A DNA stretch of 64,000 bases from a virus (lineage: Duplodnaviria; Heunggongvirae; Uroviricota; Caudoviricetes), in IMG/VR virus record IMGVR_UViG_3300010049_000009, positions 1 to 64,000 of that record; one strand, written 5' to 3'. The notes under the pieces are model-generated. The model saw only the letters and a list, made by a program, of their open reading frames with translations. It was not told where the DNA came from and made no database searches. Positions 9,119 through 64,000 of the stretch are shown here, piece by piece; the stretch's first letter is position 1, and every line of letters begins with the position of its first letter. The position numbers were made by a program, and so were the translations under genes.

Positions 9119-9168
9119 GTTGTTAAAAATAATTCTGAATTAATTTCTTATAAATAGAATCATTTTAC

Positions 9169-9384: not shown

Positions 9385-9396
9385 TTTATTTATGTT

Positions 9397-9852
9397 TTAA
9401 ATTTTCACACCCATTTTTAATAAACAAACTTTTAAATAGTTAAGTTCTTCGTTGATTTCTTCCACTATGTGCGGAATGAACTTATTGCGTAGTCGTTTAA
9501 AAGATAAATTTTGTACAGTGTCGTGTCCAAATTTTGGGGCATCATGCATTGAATACTTATATGTATTTCCCTTTTCAAGAGTACCCCCATTTTCAGGATA
9601 TTTCAACACAAACCCTATAAAACCATTATAGTTCATTTTTGGAGTTCCAAGTAGATTTTCTTTAATTTCGTTGAGAACATCCATCTGCTTCTTAACCTCT
9701 ATCAACATATCAATATCTTCGTATTTCACAGTTGGTATGTTGGCAATTTTCTCACGCAATTCGTTTTTTTCTTGTATGTGTTGATCCTCGTCAAAGTTCG
9801 GTCCGGGATTCATTATTGACCGATATACCCCGCTTTCATCCATATATCCCAT
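9397..9852 (-). CDS. hypothetical protein (151 aa)
   Basis: ORF. Confidence 0.4.
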   Translation of the reverse strand: MGYMDESGVYRSIMNPGPNFDEDQHIQEKNELREKIANIPTVKYEDIDMLIEVKKQMDVLNEIKENLLGTPKMNYNGFIGFVLKYPENGGTLEKGNTYKYSMHDAPKFGHDTVQNLSFKRLRNKFIPHIVEEINEELNYLKVCLLKMGVKI

Positions 9853-9856
9853 ATTC

Positions 9857-31947: not shown

Positions 31948-32778
31948 CTAATTTAACCTTTCTTCTCTAAATTCACAAATATCCAACAAACAAAAGTCTA
32001 TGTTATTTACCCTCGTTGTTTGTGTTGCATGAAAATGCCCATAATACCATTTTGATAATATTTTCTGATTATCTTTAATTTTATAGAAATTATTATCCAT
32101 TGTTTTACGCTCTGTATCCACATCATATTTCAATTGCATATCCACCATTATCCAACTTTGGATACCGCTCTTTGTATATGGATAAACAAATGACGGTGCA
32201 GTATGTGATGCAATAATATCAATGTTATTCGGGAATTTTTTATTGATTTCATCTATCTTTGATTCATTATATATGGGCATTTCACCTTCCCAATAATATT
32301 TTCTACCGGGTTTTTCACGTTCCCACCTCCAACGTTCAGTTCTATCAACACTCAATCCACCACCAATACATAATATATTTTTAGAAATGGTAAAGATTGG
32401 GGGTGCAAAATATAAAGAGTTGTCATCTTGTGGAAGTTCTCTTGTGTAAAATATTTCAATAACAGTGTAATCAGATACTAAATGAATGTTGGAATATGAT
32501 TTGGAATATACGCCGTCAAAATATTTTGGGTCATCGTGATTTCCTCGAACTACAACAAGGTGATTCTTTTTCTTTTTTAGTTTGCTGTTGAGTTTCTTCA
32601 ACTCCACTTTATTGTGTTCTTCGGAATGAAAACCAATACCAAAATCACCAAGTTGAATGATTACATAGTTTTCCAATTGGTATTGTACACTTGCTTTGTG
32701 TGCAAGGGTACTCCATTGTCCGTGAACATCGCCAACAAAGGTTAATCCATTGGCATCATTAAATTTTATTGTATTCAT
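31948..32778 (-). CDS. PPP-family-like Ser/Thr phosphatase / calcineurin-like metallophosphoesterase
   Basis: FVGDVHGQ ... LGDFGIG ... RGNHDD (GDxHG / GDxxxxG / GNH[DE]). Confidence 0.55.
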   Translation of the reverse strand: MNTIKFNDANGLTFVGDVHGQWSTLAHKASVQYQLENYVIIQLGDFGIGFHSEEHNKVELKKLNSKLKKKKNHLVVVRGNHDDPKYFDGVYSKSYSNIHLVSDYTVIEIFYTRELPQDDNSLYFAPPIFTISKNILCIGGGLSVDRTERWRWEREKPGRKYYWEGEMPIYNESKIDEINKKFPNNIDIIASHTAPSFVYPYTKSGIQSWIMVDMQLKYDVDTERKTMDNNFYKIKDNQKILSKWYYGHFHATQTTRVNNIDFCLLDICEFREERLN

Positions 32779-47605: not shown

Positions 47606-47610
47606 AATTT

Positions 47611-48531
47611 TTAATGAACCATTGTATTATTCCACGTTTCAGATTTATCTATTATATCCTCCCTATTTTTACGAAGCGTGTATGTTGGTTTGTTCGTATA
47701 AGCGTCTTTAACTTGTACTATTTCGGTTTGAGATAAAATAGTGTGGTCAGGATTATATGTTGTCATTAATCCCTTATCAAGATTTAATGCTTGATCCCCA
47801 CCTAACATTGTTGCCAACATAGATAAGTCGGTATCCACCATTTCAATTTCTATTAATTGAGAGTTGAATTTAGTATTAACTAGTGCAATTTGTTCACCGG
47901 TTGAACCGATGTATGGTAAAACACTTGCTTTTACCTGTGAAGCGGAACTTGGTGATAAAGTACAGAAAATAAGATTTCCATTATCCGTTAATCTATATGA
48001 TAACGATTTCATTGTTGTTGTGGATAAGTTATCCATTACTGCTTCACAACGATTGTTAGAGGTTATTGTTTTAAAATAATCTTGTTGTTGCCCACTGTTG
48101 TTATAATATTCTACACGCCAACCGCTCAACGCCATATTAACCCTCTGTGCAGCAGATAAACCACCCATTTCTGAACCCTTGAGTACAATTCCTCTTACAT
48201 CGGGTAATGCTGATAAAACAGCGGGTGCATCCTCAATAATACAATAATACCGTTTCGGGGTAAGTAAAACCGTATACACACCCTTTTTATTAAAAATCTT
48301 CATTGGTAGATTAAGAGTGTATACACCACTCAACTCATTATTGACCGGTTCATCACCTATTTCGTATGTACTTTTATTAAACCACTCACTCGGAGTACCA
48401 ACCTTTTTAAAGTCATCCCCGAAAGTCGCGTCAGTTCCGTTTCTACCAGGTCTATAATGATAAAATATATCAATATCCGTGTAAATATCAATATTTGCTA
48501 ATCTATTCGTACCTGTAATTCCTACTGCCAT
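47611..48531 (-). CDS. structural protein (306 aa)
   Basis: ORF in the structural operon. Confidence 0.55.
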   Translation of the reverse strand: MAVGITGTNRLANIDIYTDIDIFYHYRPGRNGTDATFGDDFKKVGTPSEWFNKSTYEIGDEPVNNELSGVYTLNLPMKIFNKKGVYTVLLTPKRYYCIIEDAPAVLSALPDVRGIVLKGSEMGGLSAAQRVNMALSGWRVEYYNNSGQQQDYFKTITSNNRCEAVMDNLSTTTMKSLSYRLTDNGNLIFCTLSPSSASQVKASVLPYIGSTGEQIALVNTKFNSQLIEIEMVDTDLSMLATMLGGDQALNLDKGLMTTYNPDHTILSQTEIVQVKDAYTNKPTYTLRKNREDIIDKSETWNNTMVH

Positions 48532-48578
48532 TTTAATTTAATTCTTTATTATAAATAATTGTTTTTCTATTTTTAGTA

Positions 48579-50606
48579 TCAACGCCCCTCTTCTTCTTCT
48601 TTGTATGCGCGCATTAATTCATCATTTACTTCAACACCCAATAACGCACCTTCGTCAATAAACGGTTCTTCATCAACCGGTTTGGTGTTGTCAAACACAC
48701 GCCAAAACGCACCATTATTATATGTTAACATTTGACTGAATGTTTTTATTTCACCCATTGCCATGTGCCTATCCTGTGAATAAACTATTCCCCTTTCAAC
48801 ACTAATATTGTTTTCAATTCTCGGTTTTTCGGTTACACCAAATAAATATTCTTCTTTAATCAAAGGGGTGTTTACCCACATTTCGTTATTAGAGTGTGGT
48901 GGGGGTGTTCCTGTTGGTGTAACAAAAACATTACTATCTCTCGCAACACTATCTTCATATCTGAATGAAAATGGTGTGTGTTCAGCAACCGTTGTTATTA
49001 CATAATCACCCCACTCCAAATCAACACCACTTATTACTTCCGAAGTAATTGTGTCAGTATATAAAATCCCTGTACCTACTTGTGGTTGTGTACCCACAAA
49101 TATAGTGTTTATTCTATATGTGTATATTATTTCCCTTTTAACTATTTCACCACTGATTGTGAGTTCATCAACCATATCTGATAAATTCAAACCAAGAGTA
49201 GGTGTTGGAATACTTACAATGTTATTATTTGCATTATAATATCTTGGTCCAACTCGATCTATAATGCGACTTGCATAATATTGTAATCCTTCAATTTGTG
49301 ATATGTTGCGATTGGTACTTAATTTATATTTTCCCTCAACATCAAAAAAGTTAATATCCCCAATATTGCTCACCAACCCTTTCAGTGTGTATAATAAACT
49401 ACCCGTGTTATTGGATACCGCTCTTCTTGGTGATATACATCTGTTGTCTACGGTTAATTTCCAATGAACAAATTCATTATTAACAATTCTAAATCTCTCA
49501 AAATAACCTGTTGTTGTATTTTTAACAGTATCGTCAAAATAAATAATATTCTCAATATGGTTAAAATCACCTGCGTAATAACCTTCGTTATTAACTACTT
49601 TTAAGATATATAATTGGTCATCATATATAACCACATCATTCAAATAATATCTTTGACCCGGAACCCATTCTTTTGCTGTGGAAGTGAACACACCCATATC
49701 ATCAATATCACCGTTTAATAAAATTGGTAATTTTATTATTGGTGGTTCAGGATCATATTCATAAATTGGATAATCTTTCGCTTCTTTTCTAACTTTATTA
49801 ACACAAGGTGAATTTAATTCGTAAAATGTCATTGCCCTTGCAAACACATAATCATGACACTGACTTTTAATATCACTGTGAATATCATATTCCGTAATTC
49901 TTAACACCGAATTTAAAAAGGTGGCGGGTGCTTCGTTTAAGATAAATTCATAAATTAAATCAATGATTTGTCCTAATTTATCTTCTGTTACAATGTAATT
50001 TTTAATAAAATTATTAACATATCTACCAAACGCACCGCTTGTACTAAATATGTTTAATATGGTTGAATTGTTAAATATACGTATGGGAAACCCCGTTCTT
50101 ATTTGTGTAATAAAATAATCTAAAAAACAGTCGGGCATTGGGGTATATGTTAATGCTTCAAAAACATATACTGTATTATTATTTATATCCTTTTCTTCTC
50201 TGAAATCGTCAGTAAGTAAAAAATGAAGGTATGGGTATATCCTATCACCCTCTTTGTAATACCAATTTTCACCAATATCAATGAACTGCGATAAATTATC
50301 TTGCCCAACACTACTACTATTATCAACGCAAAGACTACAAATATATTGACTTAATGTTTGAAATTCATGTAAATCTTTGAACAACCTTTTACAATCACCG
50401 AATGATAAGTATGTAAATTTGTAATATGGGTTATCAGGTAATTCAAATATCATTTTAATATTAGCAGCAATAGTATAATCACCTCTTTTATCAGTATTAT
50501 TTAGACGCGGTCGAGGCGGAATAGGTACATCCCAAACCCACAATTTGGGGTTCAGACTATAGTTCTTAAACTCATTTAAACTAATATTTTTAATTATCTT
50601 ATTCAT
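48579..50606 (-). CDS. large structural protein (675 aa)
   Basis: ORF; stop/start overlap with the next gene. Confidence 0.6.
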   Translation of the reverse strand: MNKIIKNISLNEFKNYSLNPKLWVWDVPIPPRPRLNNTDKRGDYTIAANIKMIFELPDNPYYKFTYLSFGDCKRLFKDLHEFQTLSQYICSLCVDNSSSVGQDNLSQFIDIGENWYYKEGDRIYPYLHFLLTDDFREEKDINNNTVYVFEALTYTPMPDCFLDYFITQIRTGFPIRIFNNSTILNIFSTSGAFGRYVNNFIKNYIVTEDKLGQIIDLIYEFILNEAPATFLNSVLRITEYDIHSDIKSQCHDYVFARAMTFYELNSPCVNKVRKEAKDYPIYEYDPEPPIIKLPILLNGDIDDMGVFTSTAKEWVPGQRYYLNDVVIYDDQLYILKVVNNEGYYAGDFNHIENIIYFDDTVKNTTTGYFERFRIVNNEFVHWKLTVDNRCISPRRAVSNNTGSLLYTLKGLVSNIGDINFFDVEGKYKLSTNRNISQIEGLQYYASRIIDRVGPRYYNANNNIVSIPTPTLGLNLSDMVDELTISGEIVKREIIYTYRINTIFVGTQPQVGTGILYTDTITSEVISGVDLEWGDYVITTVAEHTPFSFRYEDSVARDSNVFVTPTGTPPPHSNNEMWVNTPLIKEEYLFGVTEKPRIENNISVERGIVYSQDRHMAMGEIKTFSQMLTYNNGAFWRVFDNTKPVDEEPFIDEGALLGVEVNDELMRAYKEEEEGR

Positions 50607-52960
50607 TACGCTATGTTTGCTTCATAAAATTTTATTATAAGTTTTGAGGAGTCCCACTCAATATTTGGTGGATATGATCCGGGACTTGCGGGATCAATCG
50701 TTGTTTCACCATTAGTTATATTTATTCTTGGTATAGTGAATATAGTAGGATACCAAAAATATCTAACTTCAAAGGGTTCGTTTCTTTCTAATTGTGCTTC
50801 GGTTAGTTCATCATAAACTTTAAAAGTATTATTCCACCTAACTTTTGCACCACGAACAGTTATATCAGTGTACATGTGTTGCCTACTTCTTATTCCACCA
50901 ACATTTTGTTCAAAAAACACATTATTCAGACTAACATTGTTGTTTGGTCTATTGAAAAACAGTGTTCGTTTTCCGTCTAATGCGTTATTAAACTCCATTT
51001 TCATATATAGGTCTTGTGGTGTTAATTGTTTGTATTCTTCACCGAACAAATACAAGTAATAACCCTCACTTGACGAACTCTGTATGTATTCAACCATTGT
51101 AGTTACACCACCTTTAACATAATTATTAGTGATTTTTTCTAATAGTGGGTTAAATACATTAAATTCTGTTGCCATATTATCAGCTAACATTGCAATACCA
51201 TTTATATCGTTTCCGCTGACGTTAGAGATATTTAATATGTAATTGGTATATAACATATCAATATTAACAAAAACACTGTTAAAACACTCTAATTTGTATT
51301 GTGTAGGATTGAAATTATTATAGAAAGTTTGGCGACAAAATGTTCGTGCTAAACGTTTCTTTTTATATAAAACATCATTGTCTGTATAACCCAACTCCAT
51401 TAATTTAGTTATCTTATGTTCATCAGTGGGATTAAGGGGTTTATTAACATTAAAATAGAATTGATAATTAATTTTGTTAATGGGAACATATCTAAATACA
51501 CTATTAACACCCATTCCCGTTACCACTCTAAAAACCGGTTCAAATCTAATACGTTCATTATCTAATATAGGGTTTATAGCTCTTTCTGTTTCAATTTCCA
51601 CAAATTTTTGGTTAAATTCAGTGCGCATTAAATCGGAGGTATAATCCTGACTTAAATTTATGTTAATTGAATAATTTGCTATTGTTTTATAAAAAGTTAA
51701 ATATTCTTTATTATATATTAAGAACATATCACTGATATTAATAAACTCATCTCTTAACATAACGGCGGTTGCCATAGCACCCGTTCCATTACAGGGTGTG
51801 GATAAATTAACATTGGGTTTTGTTGTGTAACCACCACCATTTGTCAAAACAATGTCTGTTACCACACCATCTTGTGTAACAAAATACCCTTCCGCACCAG
51901 GTTGGGAAAAACCCAAAAAATGAATACCATTACTATAATTTTCACCAGCACAGTTTAATTCTATTCTTTGTATTGTGGGATTATCATGTTTTAAAATGAA
52001 TTTATATTCAATTTGATTTTCAAAACAAGGTGGGTCTTCAAGTTCAATGGACAAATCACAATATCTATGTGTATCTCTTTCTGTTTTTATTATTTCGTTA
52101 TGATAAGCAAATAAATCATTGTTTGCAATAATAGGAAAATTTGATTGTGGTATATAAAAAGAGGGTGAATAATTAACATTCATACACAATTTATATTCGG
52201 GAGTAGTTCCTATATTATTATTTAGTTTAGAAAGTGGAATACCATCTTCTGATTTTTCAATCCAATCACCCTTTCCATAATCATAACCATAATCTGTTGT
52301 AATTATAAAGTTTTGGTTTTCGGTATCCCAAGTACTTTTAATTATATTAACTTCTCTTTTTAATTCTATATAGGGTATTCTAAAATATGTGTCGTCAATA
52401 ACACAGGTATATGAAATGGAAACACCGGACAAAGTACCACAACTAATTGTAATTGGGTTTGAAGTAAATTCTTGCCACGTATTTGAGTGTTCTTCTTTTA
52501 CCCTGTTTCCACTTATTTCTACTTTAAATGTACGGAAAGATTCCCGCCACGCTGTTTCGTCATCAATTATTTTACTATTATCAAGTGTATTTTCAATAGT
52601 ATCAAGATAACCCTCTAACATTCTATTATTATCCATACGATACCACATTGTTGGGTCAGTTTCGTATGCCCAAAAATATCTTGGTGATTGAGGTGGAATT
52701 GTGGTTGTATTACCCAACACTAAACCAATCATAACCTTTGGTCTTAATGATATTGGAATATTATTTGCAAGATTAATTGTAGTAAAGTTAACACTAATAT
52801 TTTCACCATTTACAAAATTATGTGGGTTATTCAAATAAAACTCTAAATACCCATTACCCACATCAGCAGAATTAAGCATATAAGGGGGTCTGCTGCTAAA
52901 CAAGGTGTATTCTTGAATCCTTGTTTGTAAATTCTTATTGGTAATACTATATTTTTGCAT
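50606..52960 (-). CDS. large structural protein (784 aa) with the GxGY module
   Basis: GAEGYFVTQDGVVTDIVLTNGGGYTTKPNV. Confidence 0.6.
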   Translation of the reverse strand: MQKYSITNKNLQTRIQEYTLFSSRPPYMLNSADVGNGYLEFYLNNPHNFVNGENISVNFTTINLANNIPISLRPKVMIGLVLGNTTTIPPQSPRYFWAYETDPTMWYRMDNNRMLEGYLDTIENTLDNSKIIDDETAWRESFRTFKVEISGNRVKEEHSNTWQEFTSNPITISCGTLSGVSISYTCVIDDTYFRIPYIELKREVNIIKSTWDTENQNFIITTDYGYDYGKGDWIEKSEDGIPLSKLNNNIGTTPEYKLCMNVNYSPSFYIPQSNFPIIANNDLFAYHNEIIKTERDTHRYCDLSIELEDPPCFENQIEYKFILKHDNPTIQRIELNCAGENYSNGIHFLGFSQPGAEGYFVTQDGVVTDIVLTNGGGYTTKPNVNLSTPCNGTGAMATAVMLRDEFINISDMFLIYNKEYLTFYKTIANYSININLSQDYTSDLMRTEFNQKFVEIETERAINPILDNERIRFEPVFRVVTGMGVNSVFRYVPINKINYQFYFNVNKPLNPTDEHKITKLMELGYTDNDVLYKKKRLARTFCRQTFYNNFNPTQYKLECFNSVFVNIDMLYTNYILNISNVSGNDINGIAMLADNMATEFNVFNPLLEKITNNYVKGGVTTMVEYIQSSSSEGYYLYLFGEEYKQLTPQDLYMKMEFNNALDGKRTLFFNRPNNNVSLNNVFFEQNVGGIRSRQHMYTDITVRGAKVRWNNTFKVYDELTEAQLERNEPFEVRYFWYPTIFTIPRINITNGETTIDPASPGSYPPNIEWDSSKLIIKFYEANIA

Positions 52961-52966
52961 TTCTAA

Positions 52967-55858
52967 TTAACATATTTCGTTTATATCTTCATACAATTCA
53001 GTCATATTTGCTTCCCTAGAAATTGAAGTATCAGCAGGAAACCTATTGAACAACATATCAGGACAACCAATAGATTGTCTTCTTAAAAAGAAATTTATTT
53101 GTTTATGAACATAAATATTACCATTCGTAAACGGATATTCTTCAAGCGAATTAACCGCAGCATCATCTCCTGACATTATATTTCGCCACACAAACCGACC
53201 CTGACCAATATGTCTTGCCCACAACGGAGTATCATAATCATATACATATACTTCAAGGCTATTAATATTTGTTACCGGACTAATGTTAATATAATCATAT
53301 AATTCTTGATCAAATGGTATTAATATTTTACGTTCATCTTCTCTTGTGGTGGTTATTACAAATGCTTTTTCACGCTCTATTGAATCATGTAACCAAATAA
53401 CTTTAAGTATTGTGTGTTGAAGTAAATTGTGTTTTGTTCGCGTGAAAAACGGAATAAATTCTAAATTTTTACCACTTTCTGTATCAACACAACGTTCAGT
53501 GGCAACCCTATTGGGGTTTGAGAGTATGTATTCTGTAATATTAACAGGTGGATTAAATGTGGTAGTAAAATAAACCCTATAAAAAGATTTATAGTGTAAT
53601 TCACTCTCATACCATTTCAACGATATTGGATAATGAGATTGATGATAATACCCTTCGGGTCTGGGTCCCGCTTGAATGACACCACGATATATCATTCTAT
53701 TATTACTATCCTTAACACTTGTACAGTCGTCTGGAAGTGTTGTGTTTCCAAAAAATGCTGTGGTATTGGGTGATGGTTGGAAAGTGTTTTCCCCGGTGTC
53801 CGGTTTATATTGATTACTAACAGCAGGTGCATTTACTGTATCTAAACTTGATATACCATCACTATTAAACAATGCTATACCATGTGTGATAATAGCGGTG
53901 TCATGAAATAAATCACTTTCCCTATTTACAGTATTAAATCTATATTGAGATTTAGATAATACGGTTTCAGTAAAGTTTGATTTATCAAATTCACAAATAT
54001 CACCATAATAATATAATTTGTCGGGGTCTTCAATATTGGTTTTTACATCAATTGGTTTAACACTCTCAATGCTATTTGGGGAATATGGCCAAATAAATGG
54101 AAGTCTTTCATCCGCCGACAAACTATTTCTATAATTTACATTATATGAAATCGTTATTTTATGTTCATGGTTGGGGTTAGAAGTGTGACTAAGATTATGA
54201 AAACAATAAATATTTGGATATCTATTCCTATAATTTAACCCTAAACGAATATCATCTCTAATAATATTTTTATTTGAATATGCCAATTCATATCCCACAG
54301 AATTTTGACTCCAATAACGCTGAAAATCTGTTTTATAAGACTCATCAATAAGACGTGCTTGAAAAACCTCATTTTTAGGTCGGTTAGCATCATTACATCT
54401 ACGTGTTAAATAACTTCCCCAATCTACTTCGTGTTCATTATTTTTATATATTGTTAAATATATTTTTGTTAATGGTCGCCCTAAATTATCTTTCAGTAGG
54501 TTTATATCCACACTGTCGGTGAATGTTATTTGTACCATTTTATCACTAAATATATTATTTGAATATGCTAAATTATATTTTGTGTTGTTAAACAATATTT
54601 TATTAGTTTGTAACTTTTCTTCTATGTTTCCGGATGTTATTTTTTCACTTTCAAATTTCCAATTAGGTATTTTTTTAAATTTTTTAATATAATAATCACA
54701 AGGAATACCATTAACAACCTTTTTTACCCGACACTCAAAACTTATCACTGATGTAGATTTTTCAAATGGTAACAAATTACTTGCATTTGACAATATATAA
54801 AATTTTCTATCATCTTTAATTCTTTGAATTGTGTAATCTGCTTCTTGTTGATTTCCATAATAAAGACGAATTTTATTGAATACTTTGAATTTGTTTGAGT
54901 ATGCTGTTTCAAGTATTAAAGTTGGTTTATTAAATGGGGATTTTTCCGCATCAATTATTTCAATATTTATTATTGGGATTCCGTGTGAAGAATTGTTAAC
55001 AGAGGGGATTGTGCTTGTGTTTGGTGTGTGTGTTAACCAATGGTCATAAATATTTTCACATGGGTATGATAAAAAATATGACCAATTTTCTTCATTTATT
55101 AATCTATTTGCACTATTATATTTGAATAGTGTGTTGAACAATAACATTTCTCTATTAGGAAATAAATCGGTTTTTTCACAATTTCCACCTTTAACAAACG
55201 CAATTTTTGATGTGTTTTTCAAAGAATGGGTTGTTTCCCCACTTTTTACTTCCCATATCATTATTCTAGAAGGATTAATACATTGTATCCACCCATCACT
55301 TTCAACCATATTTTCTCTGATTGCCTGATCATATCCATTAATATTATCCCGCATATATGCGTATTCTACTCTTGTAACATTCTGACCCATCACAGTTTCA
55401 ACAGTATCATCCATATATCTACCACGCCTTATACTATTTGTTCTAAAATAAACGTTATCAAATATATCATAACCCATATAATAATCAACATTATTGTTTC
55501 CAATAGCACCCACAGGGTTGTATATAAATTTTGTCATTTCACTTTTTGGTAAACCGAAACCATCCTCTACTACTCTATTAGTAATTAAAATATCGTTGGT
55601 AGTACCACGTTGTATAATAGTACTTGTTGGGTTACATAAAACATTTGTACAAATAGGATTAATAGTTATTGTCAGTCTATATTTAGTGCAGTTTTCCCGC
55701 TCTTTTATATACTGCTCATTCAAATCAAGCATTGTTTGAATATCGGTTTCTTCTATAAGAGAGTTATCTCCCTTTAGTTCGATATTCAAAAAATTATCTT
55801 CTACAACCGACTCTTTTGATTGTGCTGAACCTAATAATATTTGATAATTGTTTTCCAA
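52967..55858 (-). CDS. large structural protein (963 aa); TTG start
   Basis: first start-type codon after the upstream stop is TTG; the CTATAAATACC motif lies 21-31 nt upstream. Confidence 0.6.
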   Translation of the reverse strand: MENNYQILLGSAQSKESVVEDNFLNIELKGDNSLIEETDIQTMLDLNEQYIKERENCTKYRLTITINPICTNVLCNPTSTIIQRGTTNDILITNRVVEDGFGLPKSEMTKFIYNPVGAIGNNNVDYYMGYDIFDNVYFRTNSIRRGRYMDDTVETVMGQNVTRVEYAYMRDNINGYDQAIRENMVESDGWIQCINPSRIMIWEVKSGETTHSLKNTSKIAFVKGGNCEKTDLFPNREMLLFNTLFKYNSANRLINEENWSYFLSYPCENIYDHWLTHTPNTSTIPSVNNSSHGIPIINIEIIDAEKSPFNKPTLILETAYSNKFKVFNKIRLYYGNQQEADYTIQRIKDDRKFYILSNASNLLPFEKSTSVISFECRVKKVVNGIPCDYYIKKFKKIPNWKFESEKITSGNIEEKLQTNKILFNNTKYNLAYSNNIFSDKMVQITFTDSVDINLLKDNLGRPLTKIYLTIYKNNEHEVDWGSYLTRRCNDANRPKNEVFQARLIDESYKTDFQRYWSQNSVGYELAYSNKNIIRDDIRLGLNYRNRYPNIYCFHNLSHTSNPNHEHKITISYNVNYRNSLSADERLPFIWPYSPNSIESVKPIDVKTNIEDPDKLYYYGDICEFDKSNFTETVLSKSQYRFNTVNRESDLFHDTAIITHGIALFNSDGISSLDTVNAPAVSNQYKPDTGENTFQPSPNTTAFFGNTTLPDDCTSVKDSNNRMIYRGVIQAGPRPEGYYHQSHYPISLKWYESELHYKSFYRVYFTTTFNPPVNITEYILSNPNRVATERCVDTESGKNLEFIPFFTRTKHNLLQHTILKVIWLHDSIEREKAFVITTTREDERKILIPFDQELYDYINISPVTNINSLEVYVYDYDTPLWARHIGQGRFVWRNIMSGDDAAVNSLEEYPFTNGNIYVHKQINFFLRRQSIGCPDMLFNRFPADTSISREANMTELYEDINEIC

Positions 55859-55901
55859 GTTTGTTCAAATTTTTACAACTATAAATACCAAATAAATCAA
55901 A

Positions 55902-58412
55902 TTAAGGAACAGTATTTTCTCTCACATCATTAAAACTCGCTGCTACACTGATATTTCCTCTTTCACAACGTCTTATGAAAACGGTGGGGGTGTTGTTTAC
56001 TCCTAAATGATTATCTATTACTATTTCACACCTAAATCCTGTGCCATCACTAGATAATTCAATTTCGTCATTGGGAGTGAATCCACCAATGGTGTTGCCA
56101 TTGATACTTGTTATACTCTCTATTCTACCTCTACCAACCCAATCACATGTATCTTCTTCACTACCCTCATATATGGTTATAACCGTTGTACCATCATATC
56201 CAAGACCACCGTTAGTTACCGTTATTTCATATTCGTATGTGAAAACATCATCATCAACTTCTGTTATAATAGCAACTGCGGTTGCGGTAGCCCCAATTCC
56301 TGTACCTACTATACGTACTTGTGGATTTTCTATTTGTAAATCCCCTTCGTATGTTATACTCTCTATTCTACCAATAACTTCTAAATTAAACCCAACTTGA
56401 TCCCCATTTGAATTTGTTATTGTTCCTGTGGTATTCAATTCGTAGTTGTTGCCACCCACATATAGTTTAATATTTGTTACTCTTCCGGGACCAGGTATAT
56501 AAAATATTTCCTCTTCTTGTAATATGTTTTGTTCTTGATACACAGTATCCACATATCCTAACCTCAATAATCCGTTGGTAATCGTTGTTTCAGGTAGAAT
56601 GTTACCCGATATTGTCCAAGTCGCTACGTCTGTAATATCTTGGTTTGTGTAATTTATTTCAGCAAATTCGGTTGTATCGTCAATTCTTAATCGCGCAAAA
56701 AATTGAATGGTTTCTCCATAACAACTTGGACCACCAAGACATTGTGGTTTATTTTTTTCGTAACAATGTGGTATTAAATCACAACGAACATTGTTTGCTG
56801 TGTCATATCCTGCTCTATCTGTGGTTATGGTAATATATTTTCTGTAAATATCAAGTTCAATTGGTAGAAGTGGTGGTTCAAACGGATCGGGGTCTCTATA
56901 ACTCACATTAAGTGTTATATAATCCGCACGTTCATTGTTTCCAACACGTAAAATACTTGTTCCAATATTAAAATTCGTGTTTGGATCGGTAGTGGTTGAA
57001 GCAATAGTTACTACCAAATCTTGTCTAATTCCACCACCAAATACCCAAGTATTTATTCTTATATCTTTACCGGCGGTATAACCTCTTTCAAGTGGTGTTT
57101 CGGGATCAGACCAATCTGTCATTATTTGTGGGACAAACCACACAACCGCAGAACCCGCTACCGCACCATCACTAATCATTTTTCCCACAACACTTCCACT
57201 TAAATCTCTTACTGTTTTATGTGGTCTAAACACACCAATATCAGCAAGTGTCACACCATTTACAGGTAGTTGGGGTGTTGGTATCATTAATCCAAAATGT
57301 GATTCCCATATTATTTCTTGGGTTGGGTTATCACCACCAAAAATGTACGCATTGAAAGATTTTGAGTTTGGTTTTAAATATAAACTTGGTGCTAATATAG
57401 CATCTCTTTTTTCTATTTCAGGTTCGGGTTCACCGGTTTCTTCTTCTTCTTCTTCTTCTTCTTCGGTTTCCCCCTCTTCGTCAGGTTCAGGTTCGTCAGG
57501 TCCTGGGTCCGTAATAGTGATAGTAGGGGGTGTTCTATATCCATTCCCACTATCAACAATTATAATTTCTATAATTCTACCTTCTTCGTCAATCACGGCA
57601 CTAACAATGGCAGTTCTATTGGTTTCTAATGGTTCGTCATTTTCATCTACGGCGTCCGGTTCACTAATTGTTATTAACATATTTTCCGAATACCCACTAC
57701 CACCATCAATTATTACTATTGATTTAAGACTTTTTTCATTTGATTCATAGTAACTCATTCTTTCTAATGAAGGTATAACATCAACACGTAGTGGGGTTGC
57801 TATACAGAGGGGTAAATCTTCCAATCTTTTACCTGCGCCCAACTGTCCTTCTTCACCATTACCATCCCCCACTATTTTTACATAATTTTCACCCATTATA
57901 TAATCATCTTCGTATGGTACTGCCCCACCAATATTTGGATATGGTGGAAGTTTGGGGTTATTGGGGTTTGTGGGTGGTGGAATTACTTCATATTTTTCAT
58001 TGGTATATTGTAATTTAACCGTATTTGCTTGTTTTAATATAGAACCACCACATACACCCCTTAATACAGCACCATTACCACTACCGCCAGTTACGGTTAT
58101 TGTTATGGGGTTGGTATTAGTTCCGCTACCAGGGTTTGTTACTATAACATCTACTATTCGACCATCTTCAATTTTTAAAGTTGCTGTTGCACCGACTACC
58201 CCACCACTAATATTTACGCTTGGCGGAATCAGTTCATTATATCCACTACCCGGATTAACTATTTCAACCCTTTCTAAAAACCTATTAGTACACACACCAC
58301 CAAAACATAATGTTGTGTCTGTATCATAAAATTGAACCGCTGTACCACACTTGTTCTCCGCCTTTACGAAAGCAATGCTATATTTACTAGTTTCTCTTAA
58401 TGCCGCATCCAT
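55902..58412 (-). CDS. large structural protein (836 aa) with repeated V-x-V-x-N-P-G-S-G-Y modules and a poly-Glu tract
   Basis: EIVNPGSGY, VIIDGGSGY, IIVDSGNGY; (TTC)n at 57439-57461. Confidence 0.65.
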   Translation of the reverse strand: MDAALRETSKYSIAFVKAENKCGTAVQFYDTDTTLCFGGVCTNRFLERVEIVNPGSGYNELIPPSVNISGGVVGATATLKIEDGRIVDVIVTNPGSGTNTNPITITVTGGSGNGAVLRGVCGGSILKQANTVKLQYTNEKYEVIPPPTNPNNPKLPPYPNIGGAVPYEDDYIMGENYVKIVGDGNGEEGQLGAGKRLEDLPLCIATPLRVDVIPSLERMSYYESNEKSLKSIVIIDGGSGYSENMLITISEPDAVDENDEPLETNRTAIVSAVIDEEGRIIEIIIVDSGNGYRTPPTITITDPGPDEPEPDEEGETEEEEEEEEETGEPEPEIEKRDAILAPSLYLKPNSKSFNAYIFGGDNPTQEIIWESHFGLMIPTPQLPVNGVTLADIGVFRPHKTVRDLSGSVVGKMISDGAVAGSAVVWFVPQIMTDWSDPETPLERGYTAGKDIRINTWVFGGGIRQDLVVTIASTTTDPNTNFNIGTSILRVGNNERADYITLNVSYRDPDPFEPPLLPIELDIYRKYITITTDRAGYDTANNVRCDLIPHCYEKNKPQCLGGPSCYGETIQFFARLRIDDTTEFAEINYTNQDITDVATWTISGNILPETTITNGLLRLGYVDTVYQEQNILQEEEIFYIPGPGRVTNIKLYVGGNNYELNTTGTITNSNGDQVGFNLEVIGRIESITYEGDLQIENPQVRIVGTGIGATATAVAIITEVDDDVFTYEYEITVTNGGLGYDGTTVITIYEGSEEDTCDWVGRGRIESITSINGNTIGGFTPNDEIELSSDGTGFRCEIVIDNHLGVNNTPTVFIRRCERGNISVAASFNDVRENTVP

Positions 58413-58476
58413 CTATTCTTCATTTATTTTATATAATATAAATAATAGAGATATTTTTCGTATATTTAAGTGTTAG

Positions 58477-58492
58477 ACTATTTATAAGAAAA
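58477..58492 (+). promoter_or_regulatory. conserved motif GACTATTTATAAGAAAA, 7 nt before the ATG of the giant ORF; a TATAAATA also at 58437-58444
   Basis: recurring motif family. Confidence 0.4.
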
Positions 58493-58498
58493 TTCATA

Positions 58499-61400
58499 AT
58501 GATAGATTTTGATTGGAATAAAGATTTCACTAATATTATAGAAACCACCGTAAAAGACCTTCTTAAAAAAGCGGAAAAAGAAACCAATGCCGACCCAACA
58601 CCGGAACAAGCAAAGGCGGGTAATTACAAGAAGGGAAGGGTAACTATTCAAGGGTTGGAAATTGCAATAGAAAATCCGAAGGGTAGTTATCGTAAGGGTG
58701 TAGACGCAAATGGTAAGGAATGGAAAAACAAAATGAATAACACATACGGTTATTTTGTTCAAACCAAAGCAATAGACGGTGACGCTGTTGATGTTTTTAT
58801 TGGTAGTTCCATAATGTCGGATAAAGTTTTTTGTATTGACCAATATAATGGAAATGAATTTGACGAAACCAAAGTAATGTTGGGATTCACAACAGCAGAA
58901 TACGCAAAAAAAGCATATCTATCAAATTACGAACCCGGTTGGAAAGGTTGTAAATATATAACGGAATTGGATATTGATACATTCAAAATGTGGTTAAATA
59001 ACCGCAAAGAAAAAAAACAAAGAAAACCTGTTCATTTTTATAAATCACTGATAAAAGAAGAAAACTTACTCAAAGAAAGTCTTGGTGTACGTGATGGGTT
59101 AACACCCATTGCGAAGGAAATTACTAACCGAATATTGGAAAATTGGAAAATGGGTATAACTGTTATATCAGGTATGAAAATTGAAGATGTTATGAGGACT
59201 CCCTATGAAGAACTTGAAATATTTTTACCTTATAAGGGTGAAATAGAAATAAGGGATGTTGGATTTATTGGAAAAATGTCTGTTGGTTTTAAACTTGTGG
59301 GTAAGGGTGATCGTTTAACTAATTCGTTTGTGGATGATGACCCCGATTTGGGTATTATAAAATCAACGATTGAAAATAATAAAATGATTATGCCACCCAC
59401 TAGAACTAAACCAAGTACTAAACCAAAAGCACCCCCTAAAATCACACGAAATATGTTTATATCTTCGTTTCAAGATAAAAATGAATTAATGACATTGGTT
59501 CTACATGAATTAAAACATGTGTGGGATTATTATATTTACATTAAAAAGAACACCAATTTTAATTTAGAAAAAACCAAAGTTTATCAAGTACAAGATAAAA
59601 TTGCAACATATATAATAGATAAGGTTAGGCAAATTGAAAAAGAATATCCCCATAAAAAAATATCCGATGAAGAATTAATTGAATGGTATGAGGATGAAGA
59701 AAACGTCTTTACCATACCTATTGATAAAGAAGAAGAAGATATTTTGGATAATAAAATAAGAAACGATTTGTTTGTTGTGGGTTCTAAACCACTAAAATTT
59801 GTTCCAAAAGATGATACTGTTCAAAAACTATTTTATTACACAGGAGAAACAAAAGAACTTGAAGCATTTACACAAGAGTCGTGGGAACAAATGTTATCCA
59901 ATGGAGGAAAATATAGAGAAACAAGTCTATGGGAAAAATATATGTGGTTGGTTGAAAAGGATAAAGAATTAAACCCTCTAAAAGGAGAAGAGTATATAAA
60001 CAAAATAAATTTTTATCATAGGTTTTACCCATCAAGTTGGTCAAGAGATAAAGTAGAAAAGGATATCAGGTGGCGTTTAAAAAAAGGTATCCGGGATTAT
60101 GTTTATAATATCGGTAGATTACGTGCAAGGTATGATAACCCCCCCGAAACACCGGAGACACCGGAACCCCCTATTACCGAAAATAAACAAATTATTAGTT
60201 CGGTAATAAGTCCGTATCACGGTGTAATAGGTAGTGCCGCACCCGGTAGCGAAGAATATGAAATAGGAGTGGAAATATCAGAGGGATTGAATATTAATAA
60301 CATTGTTAAGGATATTCTGTTTGAAGGTAAAGAGAGTAAAAATTTATCCAAAGCTCGAAACTATTTAAAAAACATACATAGTTTAACACAAGAAAAAGCA
60401 CAACTTGTTTTAGATAACATAAGACACCTCATTCACAATTCACGAATTGAGAATTGTAAATATATGACAGGTCTTGCAAGAATGGCAATTACTAATCAAT
60501 TGAGTGATCAAATTACACAAAGTAATATGAACAAAACATTGAAACTTTTAGAGGGTCACACTGATTACAATGAAGATTTGAATGGTTTGTCGGCAACAGA
60601 ATTAATTAATCGTTTTCAAACCGCCGTTCAAGAAGATTTGGAAAAAGATAAAGAAACCCAAAAACAATATAGTAACACTAACACCGATGGTAATTACAAT
60701 GGATATAAAATAGTTCCCATAAACGATTTTGATGACGCAAAACAATATAGTTTTGGCGTTAATTGGTGTATAACAGAAAGTGAAAGTTCTTTTGAAACAT
60801 ATACTAAAAATGGGTTAGCACGTTTTTATTTTCTTTTGAAAAATAGATATGAATTTATGAGTTATGAACTTCATGATAAAGAAGGAAGTGACCCATTAGA
60901 CGAATACGGATTAAGTAAGATTGCTATTAGTGTTAATGAAGATGGTTCATTAAATAGTTCCACATTAAGACGAAATCACAATTTTGGTGCTAATGATAAT
61001 ATGTTAACTACCGGACAGATAAGTAAACTAATCAACGCAAACTTCTACGAAGTGTTCAAACCCTATTCAAAAGAAGAATTAATTGAAAGAAAAGAAAAAT
61101 TGAAATTTTTTAGACCCGATAATCTGAATGAGTTAATTAGAAGGGATAAAATGGAGTTGGATGATTTGGAACAAGTAGGGGAAAGAATAGTTAGTAGAAT
61201 TATTTACAAAAATCGTTGTAATTATATAACACCTGACGAAGCGGGAGAAATTGTTGATAATAACGGAAAACGTTATTCTGTTGTATTTTCTAAATATGAA
61301 AGTGGTTTTACAGGATGGATGCCCTTTAACAAAGTAAATAAATGTTTAATATTGGTGATTGATAAAACCTACAACATAGGTAGGGTAGATGGTACAATGA

Positions 61401-64000
61401 TATTTAATAATTGGACACCTTGTGAGTATAAGAATATACCAAAAATGGATAATAATGGTTATACCGTATTTCCTGAAAATATAATGAAACCCAACGAAGA
61501 ATTTATATTTAAACACATAAAACCATATCATATCAAAACACCTAATACTCTTCAACCAAATGGTATTTATAGTACTAACCCACGATATACGTGTTATTTT
61601 GTAAATTACAAACATAATTCAAATTATGAATATTCACAAAAAGAAATGGAATTAGTTTTTGATTCAGGTGATAATAAATTTCTAACCACAGAACTTGATA
61701 GATCAATGGATATAGAAACCGGTCTCGAATATCTCAGTGAATGGTATAATAATCCTGATGGTTTTGGAATTGCTGAAAACACTATTAAGAATATGACGCA
61801 CGATTATTTGAATGAAATAATCGCATTATCCCCTGTTAAACAACAAGCAAAAGACGACGCTGATAGGGGAAAAACACTGCGCACCATTTCTTTTGAAGAA
61901 GACGATGATAACGTTGATCCCGAAGATAGAATAGAAGAAATTGACGAACATAAACTTGATTTACTTATTGATATTATTAACAATAAAATTAGTAATGATG
62001 CCGAAGCATTTTTGGTATTCAAATATGTTCTTGTGGGTGGTGTTAATATAAACTTCCTCGAACCCGCATATATAGCAAAAGTTAATGATGCTATGAATAT
62101 GATAAAAAATAAATTGGTAACACAAAAAAGTAAAGTTAATGCTTATAATTTCTTATTCAATCAAGTAGATCAAACCAATATGACGGGGGCGCAAAAACAG
62201 GAATTACGTGATATAATGTCAAGTTTATCTAATGTCCCTGATACACGTGCTGAATTGACGAAAAACGTTATGGAAAGTTTTGCACCAATTCTATTTAAAG
62301 ATGGTGAAAAACAAAAATTAGATTTTGAAGAACATTTAAAATCATTGTCTGATGATATTGGAATAAAAGATATTGTAGAAGAATTATTTGAAGATAATCA
62401 AAGATTAAAGGGAAAGGTGTTCCAAATACCCGATAAATTGTATTTGGAATTAAAAAACAAATATAATCAAGTTAAAGATAATCCTGAATATACCACTTAT
62501 AAAAACTATAAGCGACTTCAAAACATTGTTGAAAGAGGGGGTGAAATAACGTACAAGTGGATGTATACCCTTGTTGATTGGCGGGATAATTACACAGGTG
62601 TTTTAGGTGGTGAAAAACAAGATAAGGATGCGTGGTTAATATCCGCCGAGAAACTAATGAAATGGGTGGATGAAGAATTAGAACAAGCAACTAAATCTGT
62701 AAAACAAGCGGAAAAAACCGCTTCAAAGGTTGGTGCTATTGCTCACACACAAACGAAATTCAGAACAGTAGAATCAATGGTTCGAGATATAATAAGTGAA
62801 GATTACCAACATTTATTTGAAATGGCGGCGACAGATATTCACCAAACTTACTATCCGAACTTACCCGAAGATATATTTACACAAATTGCTTCTGCTGACG
62901 AAATTACAACAAATTTAACAAATAATAAGTTGGGTAAGTATGCCAAGTGGCTGTTGTGGTTATACACTGATAAAAAGAAAGTGAAAAACCAACTCAAATT
63001 AGAGGATTTATATAAAGCCAAAGAATATATCCCAATGTTTGATAGGTTGTCAAAATCTAAAAAATTGAAAAATAACGACCTCAACTCATATTTATCATTA
63101 AGTGATATGTATATTGCTATTAAACCATTTTTAGACGGCGAAGAATCTGTATCAAAGGGTGAGGAAATAAGACAAGTCAAACATGAGGGTGCTGAAAAAT
63201 TATATGAGGATGATAAATTCACGGTAATTCACCCAAAAACAAAGGAAGCAGCAATTTACTATGGAAAAAACACCCAATGGTGTACCTCTGCCACAGAAAA
63301 TAATATGTTTGACCACTACAACAGTGATGGACCACTTTATATAATAATAGATAAAAGAGAAAACACAAAATATCAATTTCATTTTGAAGTAAATCAATTT
63401 ATGGATGCAAACGATGTTCCAATAGAAAGACCCATTATGGAAACTATTTGGGCGACAGGTGGATTATATCAATTTTTTGAAGGGTTGGTTGGTGTTCACA
63501 AAATGTTAAAATTGGAATATGAAAATGTGGATGAACTTGATGACGGAACGTTCCTTGTTGACCGAGATGAAAGAAAATTCCTTTTAGACGCTAATGGTGA
63601 AGCACTTTTTTATGAAGAATATGACGAAATAGAAGCGTTGGGTAATGGTAGATATTTGGTATTTAAAACAGATAATGGTTATGGGGTTGTTGACCAAGAG
63701 GAAACAGAACTTATACCGTGTGGATACGATTATTTAGCCCAAGCAGGTGAAAATTTTATAGTGGAAAGTGATTCGAGATACGGTGTTATTGATATTAATA
63801 ATAATGAACTTATCCCCCTTATATATATGCAAATGGAATGTATAAACGATGAGGGTACAAGGTTTAGAATAAAGGGGCGCACGGACAAATGGGGAATTAT
63901 AGATTTAGAAACAGACACTAAAATACCGCCGGAATATGATGCTATTCAACTCGATGCGGGTGGTATGAGTCGCGCACAAAAAAACGGTAAAGTTGGTGTA
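58499..64000 (+). CDS. giant multidomain ('polyvalent'-type) protein, more than 1,833 aa and truncated by the window end: N-terminal inorganic-pyrophosphatase-like domain, HExxH motif, duplicated Cys/His domain, C-terminal WG repeats
   Basis: hand translation from the ATG at 58499 (preceded by an in-frame TAA at 58439) to 64000 found no in-frame stop; IENPKGSYRKGVD...YGYF...DGDAVDVF resembles the PPase EIPxGSxxKYExD...NYGYI...DGDPxDV motifs; LHELKH; DNGYGVVD / DSRYGVID / TDKWGIID WG repeats. Confidence 0.7.
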   Translation, partial: MIDFDWNKDFTNIIETTVKDLLKKAEKETNADPTPEQAKAGNYKKGRVTIQGLEIAIENPKGSYRKGVDANGKEWKNKMNNTYGYFVQTKAIDGDAVDVFIGSSIMSDKVFCIDQYNGNEFDETKVMLGFTTAEYAKKAYLSNYEPGWKGCKYITELDIDTFKMWLNNRKEKKQRKPVHFYKSLIKEENLLKESLGVRDGLTPIAKEITNRILENWKMGITVISGMKIEDVMRTPYEELEIFLPYKGEIEIRDVGFIGKMSVGFKLVGKGDRLTNSFVDDDPDLGIIKSTIENNKMIMPPTRTKPSTKPKAPPKITRNMFISSFQDKNELMTLVLHELKHVWDYYIYIKKNTNFNLEKTKVYQVQDKIATYIIDKVRQIEKEYPHKKISDEELIEWYEDEENVFTIPIDKEEEDILDNKIRNDLFVVGSKPLKFVPKDDTVQKLFYYTGETKELEAFTQESWEQMLSNGGKYRETSLWEKYMWLVEKDKELNPLKGEEYINKINFYHRFYPSSWSRDKVEKDIRWRLKKGIRDYVYNIGRLRARYDNPPETPETPEPPITENKQIISSVISPYHGVIGSAAPGSEEYEIGVEISEGLNINNIVKDILFEGKESKNLSKARNYLKNIHSLTQEKAQLVLDNIRHLIHNSRIENCKYMTGLARMAITNQLSDQITQSNMNKTLKLLEGHTDYNEDLNGLSATELINRFQTAVQEDLEKDKETQKQYSNTNTDGNYNGYKIVPINDFDDAKQYSFGVNWCITESESSFETYTKNGLARFYFLLKNRYEFMSYELHDKEGSDPLDEYGLSKIAISVNEDGSLNSSTLRRNHNFGANDNMLTTGQISKLINANFYEVFKPYSKEELIERKEKLKFFRPDNLNELIRRDKMELDDLEQVGERIVSRIIYKNRCNYITPDEAGEIVDNNGKRYSVVFSKYESGFTGWMPFNKVNKCLILVIDKTYNIGRVDGTMIFNNWTPCEYKNIPKMDNNGYTVFPENIMKPNEEFIFKHIKPYHIKTPNTLQPNGIYSTNPRYTCYFVNYKHNSNYEYSQKEMELVFDSGDNKFLTTELDRSMDIETGLEYLSEWYNNPDGFGIAENTIKNMTHDYLNEIIALSPVKQQAKDDADRGKTLRTISFEEDDDNVDPEDRIEEIDEHKLDLLIDIINNKISNDAEAFLVFKYVLVGGVNINFLEPAYIAKVNDAMNMIKNKLVTQKSKVNAYNFLFNQVDQTNMTGAQKQELRDIMSSLSNVPDTRAELTKNVMESFAPILFKDGEKQKLDFEEHLKSLSDDIGIKDIVEELFEDNQRLKGKVFQIPDKLYLELKNKYNQVKDNPEYTTYKNYKRLQNIVERGGEITYKWMYTLVDWRDNYTGVLGGEKQDKDAWLISAEKLMKWVDEELEQATKSVKQAEKTASKVGAIAHTQTKFRTVESMVRDIISEDYQHLFEMAATDIHQTYYPNLPEDIFTQIASADEITTNLTNNKLGKYAKWLLWLYTDKKKVKNQLKLEDLYKAKEYIPMFDRLSKSKKLKNNDLNSYLSLSDMYIAIKPFLDGEESVSKGEEIRQVKHEGAEKLYEDDKFTVIHPKTKEAAIYYGKNTQWCTSATENNMFDHYNSDGPLYIIIDKRENTKYQFHFEVNQFMDANDVPIERPIMETIWATGGLYQFFEGLVGVHKMLKLEYENVDELDDGTFLVDRDERKFLLDANGEALFYEEYDEIEALGNGRYLVFKTDNGYGVVDQEETELIPCGYDYLAQAGENFIVESDSRYGVIDINNNELIPLIYMQMECINDEGTRFRIKGRTDKWGIIDLETDTKIPPEYDAIQLDAGGMSRAQKNGKVGV

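Follow-up and report, generated by a model that had tools for sequence, protein, structure and literature searches.

The window, the whole stretch of 64,000 nucleotides of phage DNA that was analysed, ends within a very large gene on the plus strand. The earliest possible start is the ATG at 58499, as an in-frame TAA lies at 58439-58441 and no ATG, GTG or TTG occurs between the two. From there the frame stays open, as the sequence-only reading had claimed, for 1,834 codons up to the window end, and an open frame of this length would arise by chance with a probability of about 1e-59 at the base composition of the window. The same gene is complete, as an ORF of 1,991 aa, on the JGI metagenome contig Ga0123355_10004480 (L001), which differs from window positions 45902-64000 at 2 of 18,099 nt. 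This contig supplies the flanking sequence that had been recommended for reaching the true C-terminus: the gene runs on for 474 nt past the window end (157 codons and a stop), and 157 aa lie outside the window. Across long aligned stretches, two homologs, P0001 (2,049 aa) and P0002, share 54-56% identity with the protein. The ORF at 58499 is a genuine gene of 1,991 residues in a large phage. It had been described as unannotated and is indeed missing from the ORF list; the cause, however, is that the ORF lister leaves out frames that run off the window. Searched against GenBank phages, the gene had no megablast match and the whole protein had tblastn matches to its InPase part only, and no relative turned up when IMG/VR viral contigs were scanned by pattern.

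The gene is divergent from its upstream neighbour, as had been stated, and an AT-rich spacer separates the two (Table 1). One or more promoters are presumably located in this spacer; a promoter and terminator scan that included the sigma-70 consensus gave no enrichment over shuffled sequences. The upstream genes had been called a tail-fibre/baseplate operon, and what stands of this assignment is a set of weak matches to tail-fibre and baseplate-wedge PHROGs within the N-terminal ~130 residues of the 836-aa neighbour. The gene adjoins large, probably structural, genes, and a T4-type portal gene (PF07230, E 1.8e-55) lies 20 kb away within the window. It is the sole plus-strand gene inside a minus-strand block, here and in the P0001 phage, in which both the synteny and this isolated position on the opposite strand are kept, and this arrangement suggests separate regulation. 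An orientation opposite to that of the large neighbours is counted against assigning the gene to the phage polyvalent proteins. The relatives are located on phage-like contigs of 180-269 kb.

Table 1. Coordinates of the gene, its modules and its upstream neighbourhood in the window.
Feature	Position	Strand	Basis or remark
836-aa neighbour gene	55902-58412	-	divergent from the 1,991-codon gene
AT-rich spacer, 86 nt	58413..58498	.	between the two divergent genes
Gene of putative polyvalent protein	58499..64000	+	first 1,834 of 1,991 codons; open frame, full length from L001
InPase domain, aa 36-166	58604..58996	+	PF18823, E 5.9e-50; conservation against 53 homologs
HExxH module, aa 186-565	59054..60193	+	rare family of ~300 aa, probably zincin-like metallopeptidase
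HELKH motif, aa 336-340	59504..59518	+	H-E-x-x-H invariant in 28/28 family members
WC1, aa 600-898	60296..61192	+	helical N-terminal part and alpha/beta core
WC1 invariant C757	60767-60769	+	alignment of WC1 family
Three conserved modules, aa ~899-1090, 1091-1292 and 1293-1434	61193..62800	+	HSP map and conservation
WC2, aa 1439-1663	62813..63487	+	phrog_17056, phrog_28193; AF2 model; BFVD fold matches
WC2 invariant C1595	63281-63283	+	91/91 sequences
WG beta-repeat array (start), aa ~1690-1991	63566..64000	+	PF14903; cut off at window end

Independent HSPs and profiles delimit at least seven separable modules in the 1,991 aa, in the order InPase, HExxH module, WC1, three middle modules, WC2 and WG repeats. 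The suspicion of a PPase-like N-terminus was well founded. The PF18823 match reaches 169.1 bits against a Pfam gathering cut-off of 26.8 and covers profile positions 2-134 of 135, and all columns that are at least 90% conserved in 53 non-redundant homologs are kept by the protein (E58, K61, R65, D69, YGY, D93/D95/D98, D114, D122/E123 and K125). The classical family-I profile PF00719, which had been proposed as the check, has no match in the protein at E <= 1, and the domain belongs to PF18823 instead. Judged by sequence, the domain is a family-I inorganic pyrophosphatase of the polyvalent-protein type, and its predicted catalytic-type residues are intact; the literature searched yielded no biochemical data on this type of InPase. 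More than 2,000 homologs of the domain are present in databases, and many of these are proteins of 1,000-3,100 aa with further Pfam domains of the PF187xx-PF188xx range (e.g., PF18760, PF18798 and PF18819; many are of the polyvalent LPD/MuF type), accessions that we take to denote the families described for polyvalent proteins by Iyer et al. The PHROG families that match InPase are labelled as DarB-like antirestriction protein, virion structural protein and minor head protein. The sequence-only reading knew of no PPase module in proteins of this kind; such a module was, however, defined in 2017 as specific to phage polyvalent proteins, and was predicted to be virion-packaged (Iyer et al., PMC5512222).

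The HExxH motif that had been read in LHELKH proved to be a conserved element of a distinct family. E193, H336, E337, H340 and Y446 are invariant in this family and E453 is nearly so. In the predicted structure, HELKH falls within the helix at model positions 142-165 and E453, a candidate downstream Glu ligand, within the helix at 266-282, and the secondary-structure elements of the model follow a zincin-like order. Furthermore, the weak Pfam matches of family members are solely to metallopeptidase families. The family is probably one of zincin-like metallopeptidases. A word-index homolog search with aa 190-570 found nothing; the family was recovered by an exhaustive HMMER search, which returned 26 cluster representatives in 1.84 billion proteins. 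Since the closest homologs P0001 and P0002 are without it, the HExxH module is an optional cassette.

The two modules with a Trp-Cys pair (W756/C757 and W1594/C1595) are, by profile comparison, distant paralogs, as had been proposed: hhalign aligns WC1 and WC2 with a probability of 94.4% (E 8.9e-8) and their HMMs match reciprocally. A self-BLAST of the protein did not detect this internal duplication, and profile methods were required. Each module spans 220-300 aa and not the ~60 aa first estimated. In WC1 the conserved motifs of the alignment are D.YG.S and R.NH, with C757 and the His of R.NH (near aa 827) invariant; the His of ELHD, which had been singled out earlier, is not conserved. The corresponding choice for WC2, the His of FHFE, was correct, as H1628 is present in 87 of 91 sequences (96%). 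In the same 91 sequences W1594, C1595, T1596, Y1607 and G1611 are conserved in every case, and D1503, Q1626, D1636 and D1639 are highly conserved, the last two positions being mostly D or N. The structure prediction that had been suggested for the module was obtained for WC2 as an AF2 model with a pLDDT of 89.6. The idea of a papain- or transglutaminase-like enzyme keeps its conserved Cys and His (and Asp/Asn) and is not supported by fold: no match to a papain-like, NlpC/P60 or transglutaminase fold was found in the fold search. WC1 has no match in GenBank phages, Pfam or the PDB, the profiles of both modules retrieved nothing from PDB sequences, and the two PHROGs that match WC2 carry no functional label.

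Further copies of the WC fold, which has no solved relative, occur in jumbo phages and in giant viruses, where they are fused to LRR, ankyrin, TPR or WG repeats. Among 95 homologs WC2 is coupled to repeat domains of exchangeable type. The contigs of these homologs are phage-like, and a chromosomal origin of the stand-alone WC proteins was rejected on this ground. The arrays attached to these stand-alone relatives are LRR, ankyrin, TPR or DUF4116, and their genes are located among methylase, DUF932 and thioredoxin genes, not among structural genes. One relative of WC2, EST35_0205 of jumbo phage PA5oct, adjoins the large terminase gene and was identified as a virion protein by ESI-MS/MS. Residues 1435-1865 match the proteins P0121 and P0122 end to end. 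The last ~430 aa thus correspond to complete stand-alone phage proteins and were therefore probably added by gene fusion.

Between the two WC modules lie three conserved modules that have been shuffled independently in the related giant proteins P0003, P0006, P0008 and P0010. They have no match in Pfam, PHROG, NCBIfam or PADLOC, and a segment-by-segment Pfam search at E <= 10 yielded no credible match for aa 190-1690. The C-terminal repeats had been recognised as WG-type, and PF14903 (WG_beta_rep) agrees, with E 1.6e-9 within the window and, over the full C-terminus, six matching stretches at E 3.6e-27 (94.5 bits; cut-off 25.6); the complete array has about 8-9 repeats. Literature searches on WG repeats in phages and on PcfJ yielded nothing useful. 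A role of WG repeats as cell-surface binders is an alternative that was counted against the polyvalent assignment.

A C-terminal repeat array occupies a common position of receptor-binding domains. An external virion component, namely a tail fibre, baseplate or receptor-binding protein whose WG repeats bind the host surface while its enzymatic modules act on the envelope at adsorption, would accord with this position, with the adjoining large genes (the first of which has the weak tail-fibre and baseplate-wedge matches) and with the label 'tail protein' given to some InPase proteins of GenBank phages (Leptospira LE1 and Cellulophaga phages). These labels are unverified annotations, however, and Pfam searches detected no signature of a fibre, beta-helix, collagen or depolymerase. 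Moreover, the same WC module is joined elsewhere to LRR, ankyrin and TPR arrays, which are typical intracellular protein-binding modules, the substrates of InPase are cytoplasmic, and the literature ties InPase to head or portal proteins and to injected proteins. We consider an external component very unlikely.

The class that fits best, and that had been proposed earlier, is that of the mosaic 'polyvalent' effectors. Several unrelated domains are present in one polypeptide, one of these is an InPase, and the phage encodes a portal; of the other domains that Pfam treats as specific to polyvalent proteins (MuF, MPTase-PolyVal, ART, methylase/helicase and LPD1-40), none was detected in the protein. 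The gene probably encodes a phage polyvalent protein composed of independently shuffled modules. We infer virion packaging and injection: the protein is most likely synthesized late in infection, packed into the head and passed into the host cell together with the DNA. In the mechanism that we propose, once the protein is delivered, the zincin-like HExxH module could cut the polyprotein into working pieces, or cut a host protein. The InPase could clear pyrophosphate or hydrolyse a nucleotide-derived signal, and early phage reactions would thereby be favoured. The WC domains, with an invariant Cys beside conserved His and Asp residues, may act as thiol-dependent enzymes or as binding modules, and the repeat array attached to a WC domain (WG in this case; LRR, ankyrin, TPR or DUF4116 in the stand-alone relatives) might select the target.

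The lone plus-strand orientation within a minus-strand block, shared with the P0001 phage, is also what would be expected of a protein for host takeover or anti-defence that is not packaged but expressed inside the cell from its own promoter after infection, possibly with processing by the HExxH module. The placement of stand-alone WC and repeat genes next to methylase, DUF932 and thioredoxin genes points the same way. Against this reading stand the packaging predicted for polyvalent proteins with InPase, the fusion of some of these to portals, the mass-spectrometric detection of the PA5oct WC protein in virions, and the PHROG labels, which refer to the virion or head. We therefore regard intracellular expression without packaging as unlikely and retain the packaged polyvalent protein as the preferred reading.

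For the polyvalent class a PPase module is established knowledge, and the gene is therefore a fresh example and not a fresh principle. It carries two uncharacterised families (HExxH and WC) without a counterpart in Pfam or the PDB; both are conserved and probably enzymatic. The first is rare. The second occurs in jumbo phages as well as in giant viruses, invariably together with putative target-binding repeats, and mass spectrometry has detected one of its members in virions. Each family is a candidate for biochemistry and structural work on the means by which large phages take control of their hosts when the DNA enters. A more speculative proposal, which we put forward tentatively, is that WC constitutes a new and widespread viral effector domain, a thiol-dependent enzyme with an invariant Cys, conserved His and Asp and no solved structural relative, which jumbo phages and giant viruses would aim at different host proteins by swapping arrays (WG, LRR, ankyrin, TPR or DUF4116) and of which an injected polyvalent protein would, in the present case, contain two copies, with the rare HExxH family forming a new clade of polyprotein-processing zincins.

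Comparison with known systems places the parts of the protein at different distances from their relatives. The HExxH module may be compared with gluzincin-type zincins (Peptidase_M91/NleD, SprT-like and PhageMetallopep), as its model places the invariant HExxH on a long helix after a beta-sheet and a conserved Glu on a later helix, and the Pfam families of these three groups are weakly matched by family members. WC2 shows a fold-level likeness to phage PcfJ-like proteins (PF14284; Foldseek E 5e-4 to 1e-3, probability 0.92-0.97, in BFVD); a link to this family was not confirmed by sequence, as no match was found in the protein, in 26 WC2 members or in the jumbo-phage relatives. InPase-like sequence also forms the C-terminus of the portal chain 9b41_L of phage Pa193, a Pbunavirus (gp19, PDB 9b41), where residues 635-757 align with aa 46-170 of our protein (E 6e-27) and residues 529-765 are without cryo-EM density. 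In this portal and in Burkholderia phage BcepF1 the InPase is fused to the portal, unlike the present case. The InPase polyvalent proteins (Iyer, Burroughs, Anand, de Souza and Aravind 2017, J Bacteriol 199:e00245-17) are alike in being giant multi-module polypeptides of portal/terminase-type phages, in combining an InPase with kept residues and an HExxH in one polypeptide and in the free shuffling of modules, including 'LPD-like' ones, among relatives. The present protein differs in that its HExxH module is a member of another, rare family and not of MPTase-PolyVal, and a term search over part of the 2017 text found neither WC modules nor a WG tail. Finally, EST35_0205 and the other stand-alone WC and repeat proteins of jumbo phages and Marseilleviruses agree with the present protein in WC fold and in motifs (Foldseek E 7.5e-16; tblastn 30% identity). 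In these proteins a repeat array comes after a WC domain at the N-terminus, and the last ~430 aa reproduce this arrangement. They are separate proteins of 250-480 aa, whereas the present gene has such a unit fused to the end of its polyvalent protein, which also carries WC1, a divergent second copy.

The gene that begins at the ATG at 58499 is real and had been read correctly. Translation of the window gives 1,834 stop-free codons on the plus strand (58499-64000), the single open frame that the sequence-only reading had proposed, and the chance of such a run is about 1e-59 at a stop frequency of 0.071 per codon for the base composition of the window. Upstream there is an in-frame TAA (58439-58441), and with no ATG, GTG or TTG in frame between it and 58499, this ATG is the first usable start. 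The true C-terminus was obtained from flanking sequence on a JGI metagenome contig (L001; 3300009826|Ga0123355_10004480), reached through an exact match to the 836-aa protein encoded next to the gene. The contig differs from window positions 45902-64000 by 2 mismatches in 18,099 nt and carries the complete gene, which ends after 1,991 codons, so that only the last 157 residues are absent from the window. The gene had been taken as unannotated; it is missing from the window's ORF list, solely because the lister skips ORFs running past the window edge, but JGI had already called it, with the tags InPase and WG_beta_rep.

HSPs to database homologs cut the protein into independently shuffled modules, an architecture that unites intact InPase and HExxH signatures with two paralogous 'WC' modules (WC1 and WC2) conserving Cys, His and Asp. 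Pfam searches of segments found no recognisable signature in any of the three modules between WC1 and WC2. The C-terminal WG repeats had been recognised rightly and match their profile at E 3.6e-27 in six stretches. A related InPase polyvalent protein of 2,274 aa (P0003, on a 17 kb ENA contig) has three WC2 copies and carries the modules of aa 1091-1292 and 1293-1422 in a different order, which shows that modules are shuffled and amplified rapidly.

Features of the window and modules of the 1,991-aa protein
Feature	Position	Strand	Basis
Fe-S oxidoreductase-like gene	window 14695-15693	minus	phrog_16999, E 2.5e-43
DnaK/Hsp70 chaperone, phage-encoded, 638 aa	window 26526-28442	minus	phrog_22485, E 6.5e-246
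Metallophosphoesterase	window 31948-32778	minus	phrog_1649, E 5.9e-18
T4-type portal	window 36102-38081	minus	PF07230, E 1.8e-55
Six consecutive large ORFs (1270, 306, 675, 784, 963, 836 aa)	window 43793-58412	minus	
InPase	aa 36-166		PF18823 match
HExxH module	aa ~186-565		HMMER family
WC1	aa 600-898		profile comparison
Three further conserved modules	aa 899-1434		conservation across homologs
WC2	aa 1439-1663		profile comparison
WG beta-repeats	aa ~1690-1991		PF14903

The N-terminal domain matches Pfam InPase at E 5.9e-50 (169 bits; cut-off 26.8), whereas classical PF00719 gave no match in the Pfam search; the proposed family-I pyrophosphatase likeness holds, in the form of InPase rather than of the classical family. 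Aligned with 53 non-redundant homologs, the target retains every position that is at least 90% conserved (IENPKGS.R.GVD, YGYF, DGD..DVF, DQ, FDE.K), and the domain therefore looks active from its residues. It also matches residues 635-757, the C-terminal part of the Pa193 portal chain (PDB 9b41), consistent with the InPase-portal fusions noted by Iyer et al. 2017 (PMC5512222). Residues 529-765 of that chain are without density, so there is as yet no structure for an InPase of this type. Chain L of the entry is portal gp19, whose deposited sequence ends with an InPase-type domain absent from the structure's paper; without density or mention, 12 copies per virion of a putative pyrophosphatase have gone undescribed in Pa193.

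Profile-profile comparison of WC1 with WC2 (94.4% probability, E 8.9e-8, 138 columns) and reciprocal recovery by their HMMs (i-E 2e-5 and 3e-6), which found no third copy in the protein, show the two to be true but distant paralogs (17% identity). The paralogy claimed earlier thus stands; the size of about 60 aa does not, each module spanning 220-300 aa. Among 91 unique WC2 sequences, W1594, C1595, T1596, Y1607 and G1611 are 100% conserved, H1628 (the His of 'FHFE') is conserved in 87, and D1503, Q1626, D1636 and D1639 are highly conserved. The WC1 His proposed as its counterpart, in 'ELHD', falls in a variable stretch; the invariant one sits in R.NH. In the WC2 model, which is confident (pLDDT 89.6), a helical bundle leads into a small alpha/beta core, and the Cys begins a short helix that comes after a Gly-rich loop. 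Neither module found a match in sequence searches of Pfam and the PDB, and the family's PHROGs (phrog_17056, phrog_28193) are both labelled unknown function.

The 95 WC2 homologs are mostly proteins of 350-450 aa with an N-terminal WC domain and, after it, a repeat array that is interchangeable (WG, LRR, ankyrin, TPR or DUF4116). Their contigs are phage-like, with dense small ORFs (14.6-142 kb in the examples read), and encode Dam and N6/N4 methylases, DUF932, thioredoxin/glutaredoxin and amidase. Two stand-alone proteins, P0121 and P0122, align over their complete length, end-to-end, with residues 1435-1865 of the target (40-42% identity), so that, judged by this alignment, the C-terminal unit has the look of an entire gene joined to the polyprotein by fusion. 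One stand-alone protein comes from the target's own metagenome: P0122, a WC+WG gene (L002; JGI 3300009826, Ga0123355_10000591, 1-11197), has nearby a WG-repeat protein of 966 aa and an ORF that exceeds 2,895 aa and runs off the locus; this may be a second giant-protein locus, belonging to a related large phage. The gene of a WC+LRR protein, P0180 (cluster of 113 sequences; 10001-11341 in L003 coordinates; L003/L004/L005), lies between a Dam-type methylase gene and a DUF932 gene. The large phage concerned encodes DnaJ, thioredoxins and glutaredoxin as well, and the neighbourhood may be an anti-restriction one. In Foldseek searches of viral models WC2 also matched Marseillevirus ankyrin-repeat proteins and, at lower confidence, 'PcfJ-like' phage proteins (E 5e-4 to 1e-3); no PcfJ signal was found at sequence level.

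Among GenBank phages the WC module occurs in jumbo phages only: the PA5oct group, Salicola SCTP-2 (six places) and Caulobacter CcrBL9. PA5oct, for which 93 virion-associated proteins are reported (PMC7318152), carries it in EST35_0205, annotated 'structural protein, ESI-MS/MS' and encoded immediately downstream of the large terminase EST35_0204 (L006; MK797984.1, 1350-5934). EST35_0204 is annotated 'hypothetical' yet matches Terminase_6N/6C, and another MS-verified structural protein lies downstream of EST35_0205.

The portal in the window is only ~33% identical to its nearest GenBank relatives, those of the 160-190-kb myoviruses Microcystis phage Mel-JY01 and Flavobacterium phage immuto, and the window therefore derives from a large myovirus-like lineage that is poorly sampled. 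Its DnaK shares 62-66% identity with those encoded by 'uncultured phage' genomes of 630-735 kb (LR756501-3, LR745206); the Fe-S oxidoreductase-like gene and the metallophosphoesterase are auxiliary enzymes of the same phage. The six large ORFs have essentially no Pfam/PHROG match, the one exception being a weak match of the 836-aa protein, over its N-terminal ~130 aa, to virion-structural, tail-fibre and baseplate-wedge PHROGs; a tail-fibre/baseplate operon, as suggested before, is plausible, but the match behind it is weak and confined to that segment. Beside such neighbours the protein might itself be an external receptor-binding component, a reading that we regard as quite unlikely. In the phage of P0001, an InPase-bearing giant homolog (contigs of 180-269 kb), the InPase gene is likewise alone on the plus strand, surrounded by minus-strand genes, and adjoins a similar series of ~700-960-aa proteins.

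The sequence-only reading knew of no PPase-like module in such proteins. This was mistaken, since the account of polyvalent proteins by Iyer et al., who defined them, lists InPase among domains found only in those of phage type, predicts that it is packaged and injected, and proposes that it removes PPi or else hydrolyses a molecule derived from a nucleotide; the assignment to this class was right. We consider it likely that the target is a polyvalent protein of this known class, probably virion-delivered, and within that reading slightly favour packaging of the target itself. The same modules could serve a non-packaged intracellular effector, which we hold unlikely beside the predicted injection of InPase. 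As a polyvalent protein, the target would be made late, packaged in the head and ejected; its HExxH module might act in processing or cleave a host protein, InPase might hydrolyse PPi or a nucleotide signal, and the WC domains might act in a thiol-dependent way or in binding, with the repeat array directing them.

What remains of value is a pair of domain families, WC and HExxH, which are conserved, probably enzymatic and so far uncharacterised. Only 26 members of the latter, mostly stand-alone proteins of 320-350 aa, came out of an exhaustive HMMER search through 1.84 billion cluster representatives, and the HExxH noticed in the sequence-only reading is invariant in 28 of 28 sequences (consensus HE(L/I/V/F)(N/K)H.(Y/W)(D/E)). 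All family members share E193, H336, E337, H340 and Y446, and nearly all share E453; sub-threshold Pfam matches of some members reach metallopeptidase families only (Peptidase_M91, SprT-like, PhageMetallopep). The target's closest homologs, P0001 and P0002, wholly lack the module. According to Iyer et al. (PMC5512222), HExxH zincins are the commonest hub domain of polyvalent proteins and are proposed to act in processing of the polyprotein, either ahead of delivery or once it has taken place; the AF2 model of the target module (pLDDT 72.8), in which a helix at the N-terminus, a beta-sheet, a long HExxH helix and a later helix bearing E453 follow one another, has the same order of elements as the zincins described there.
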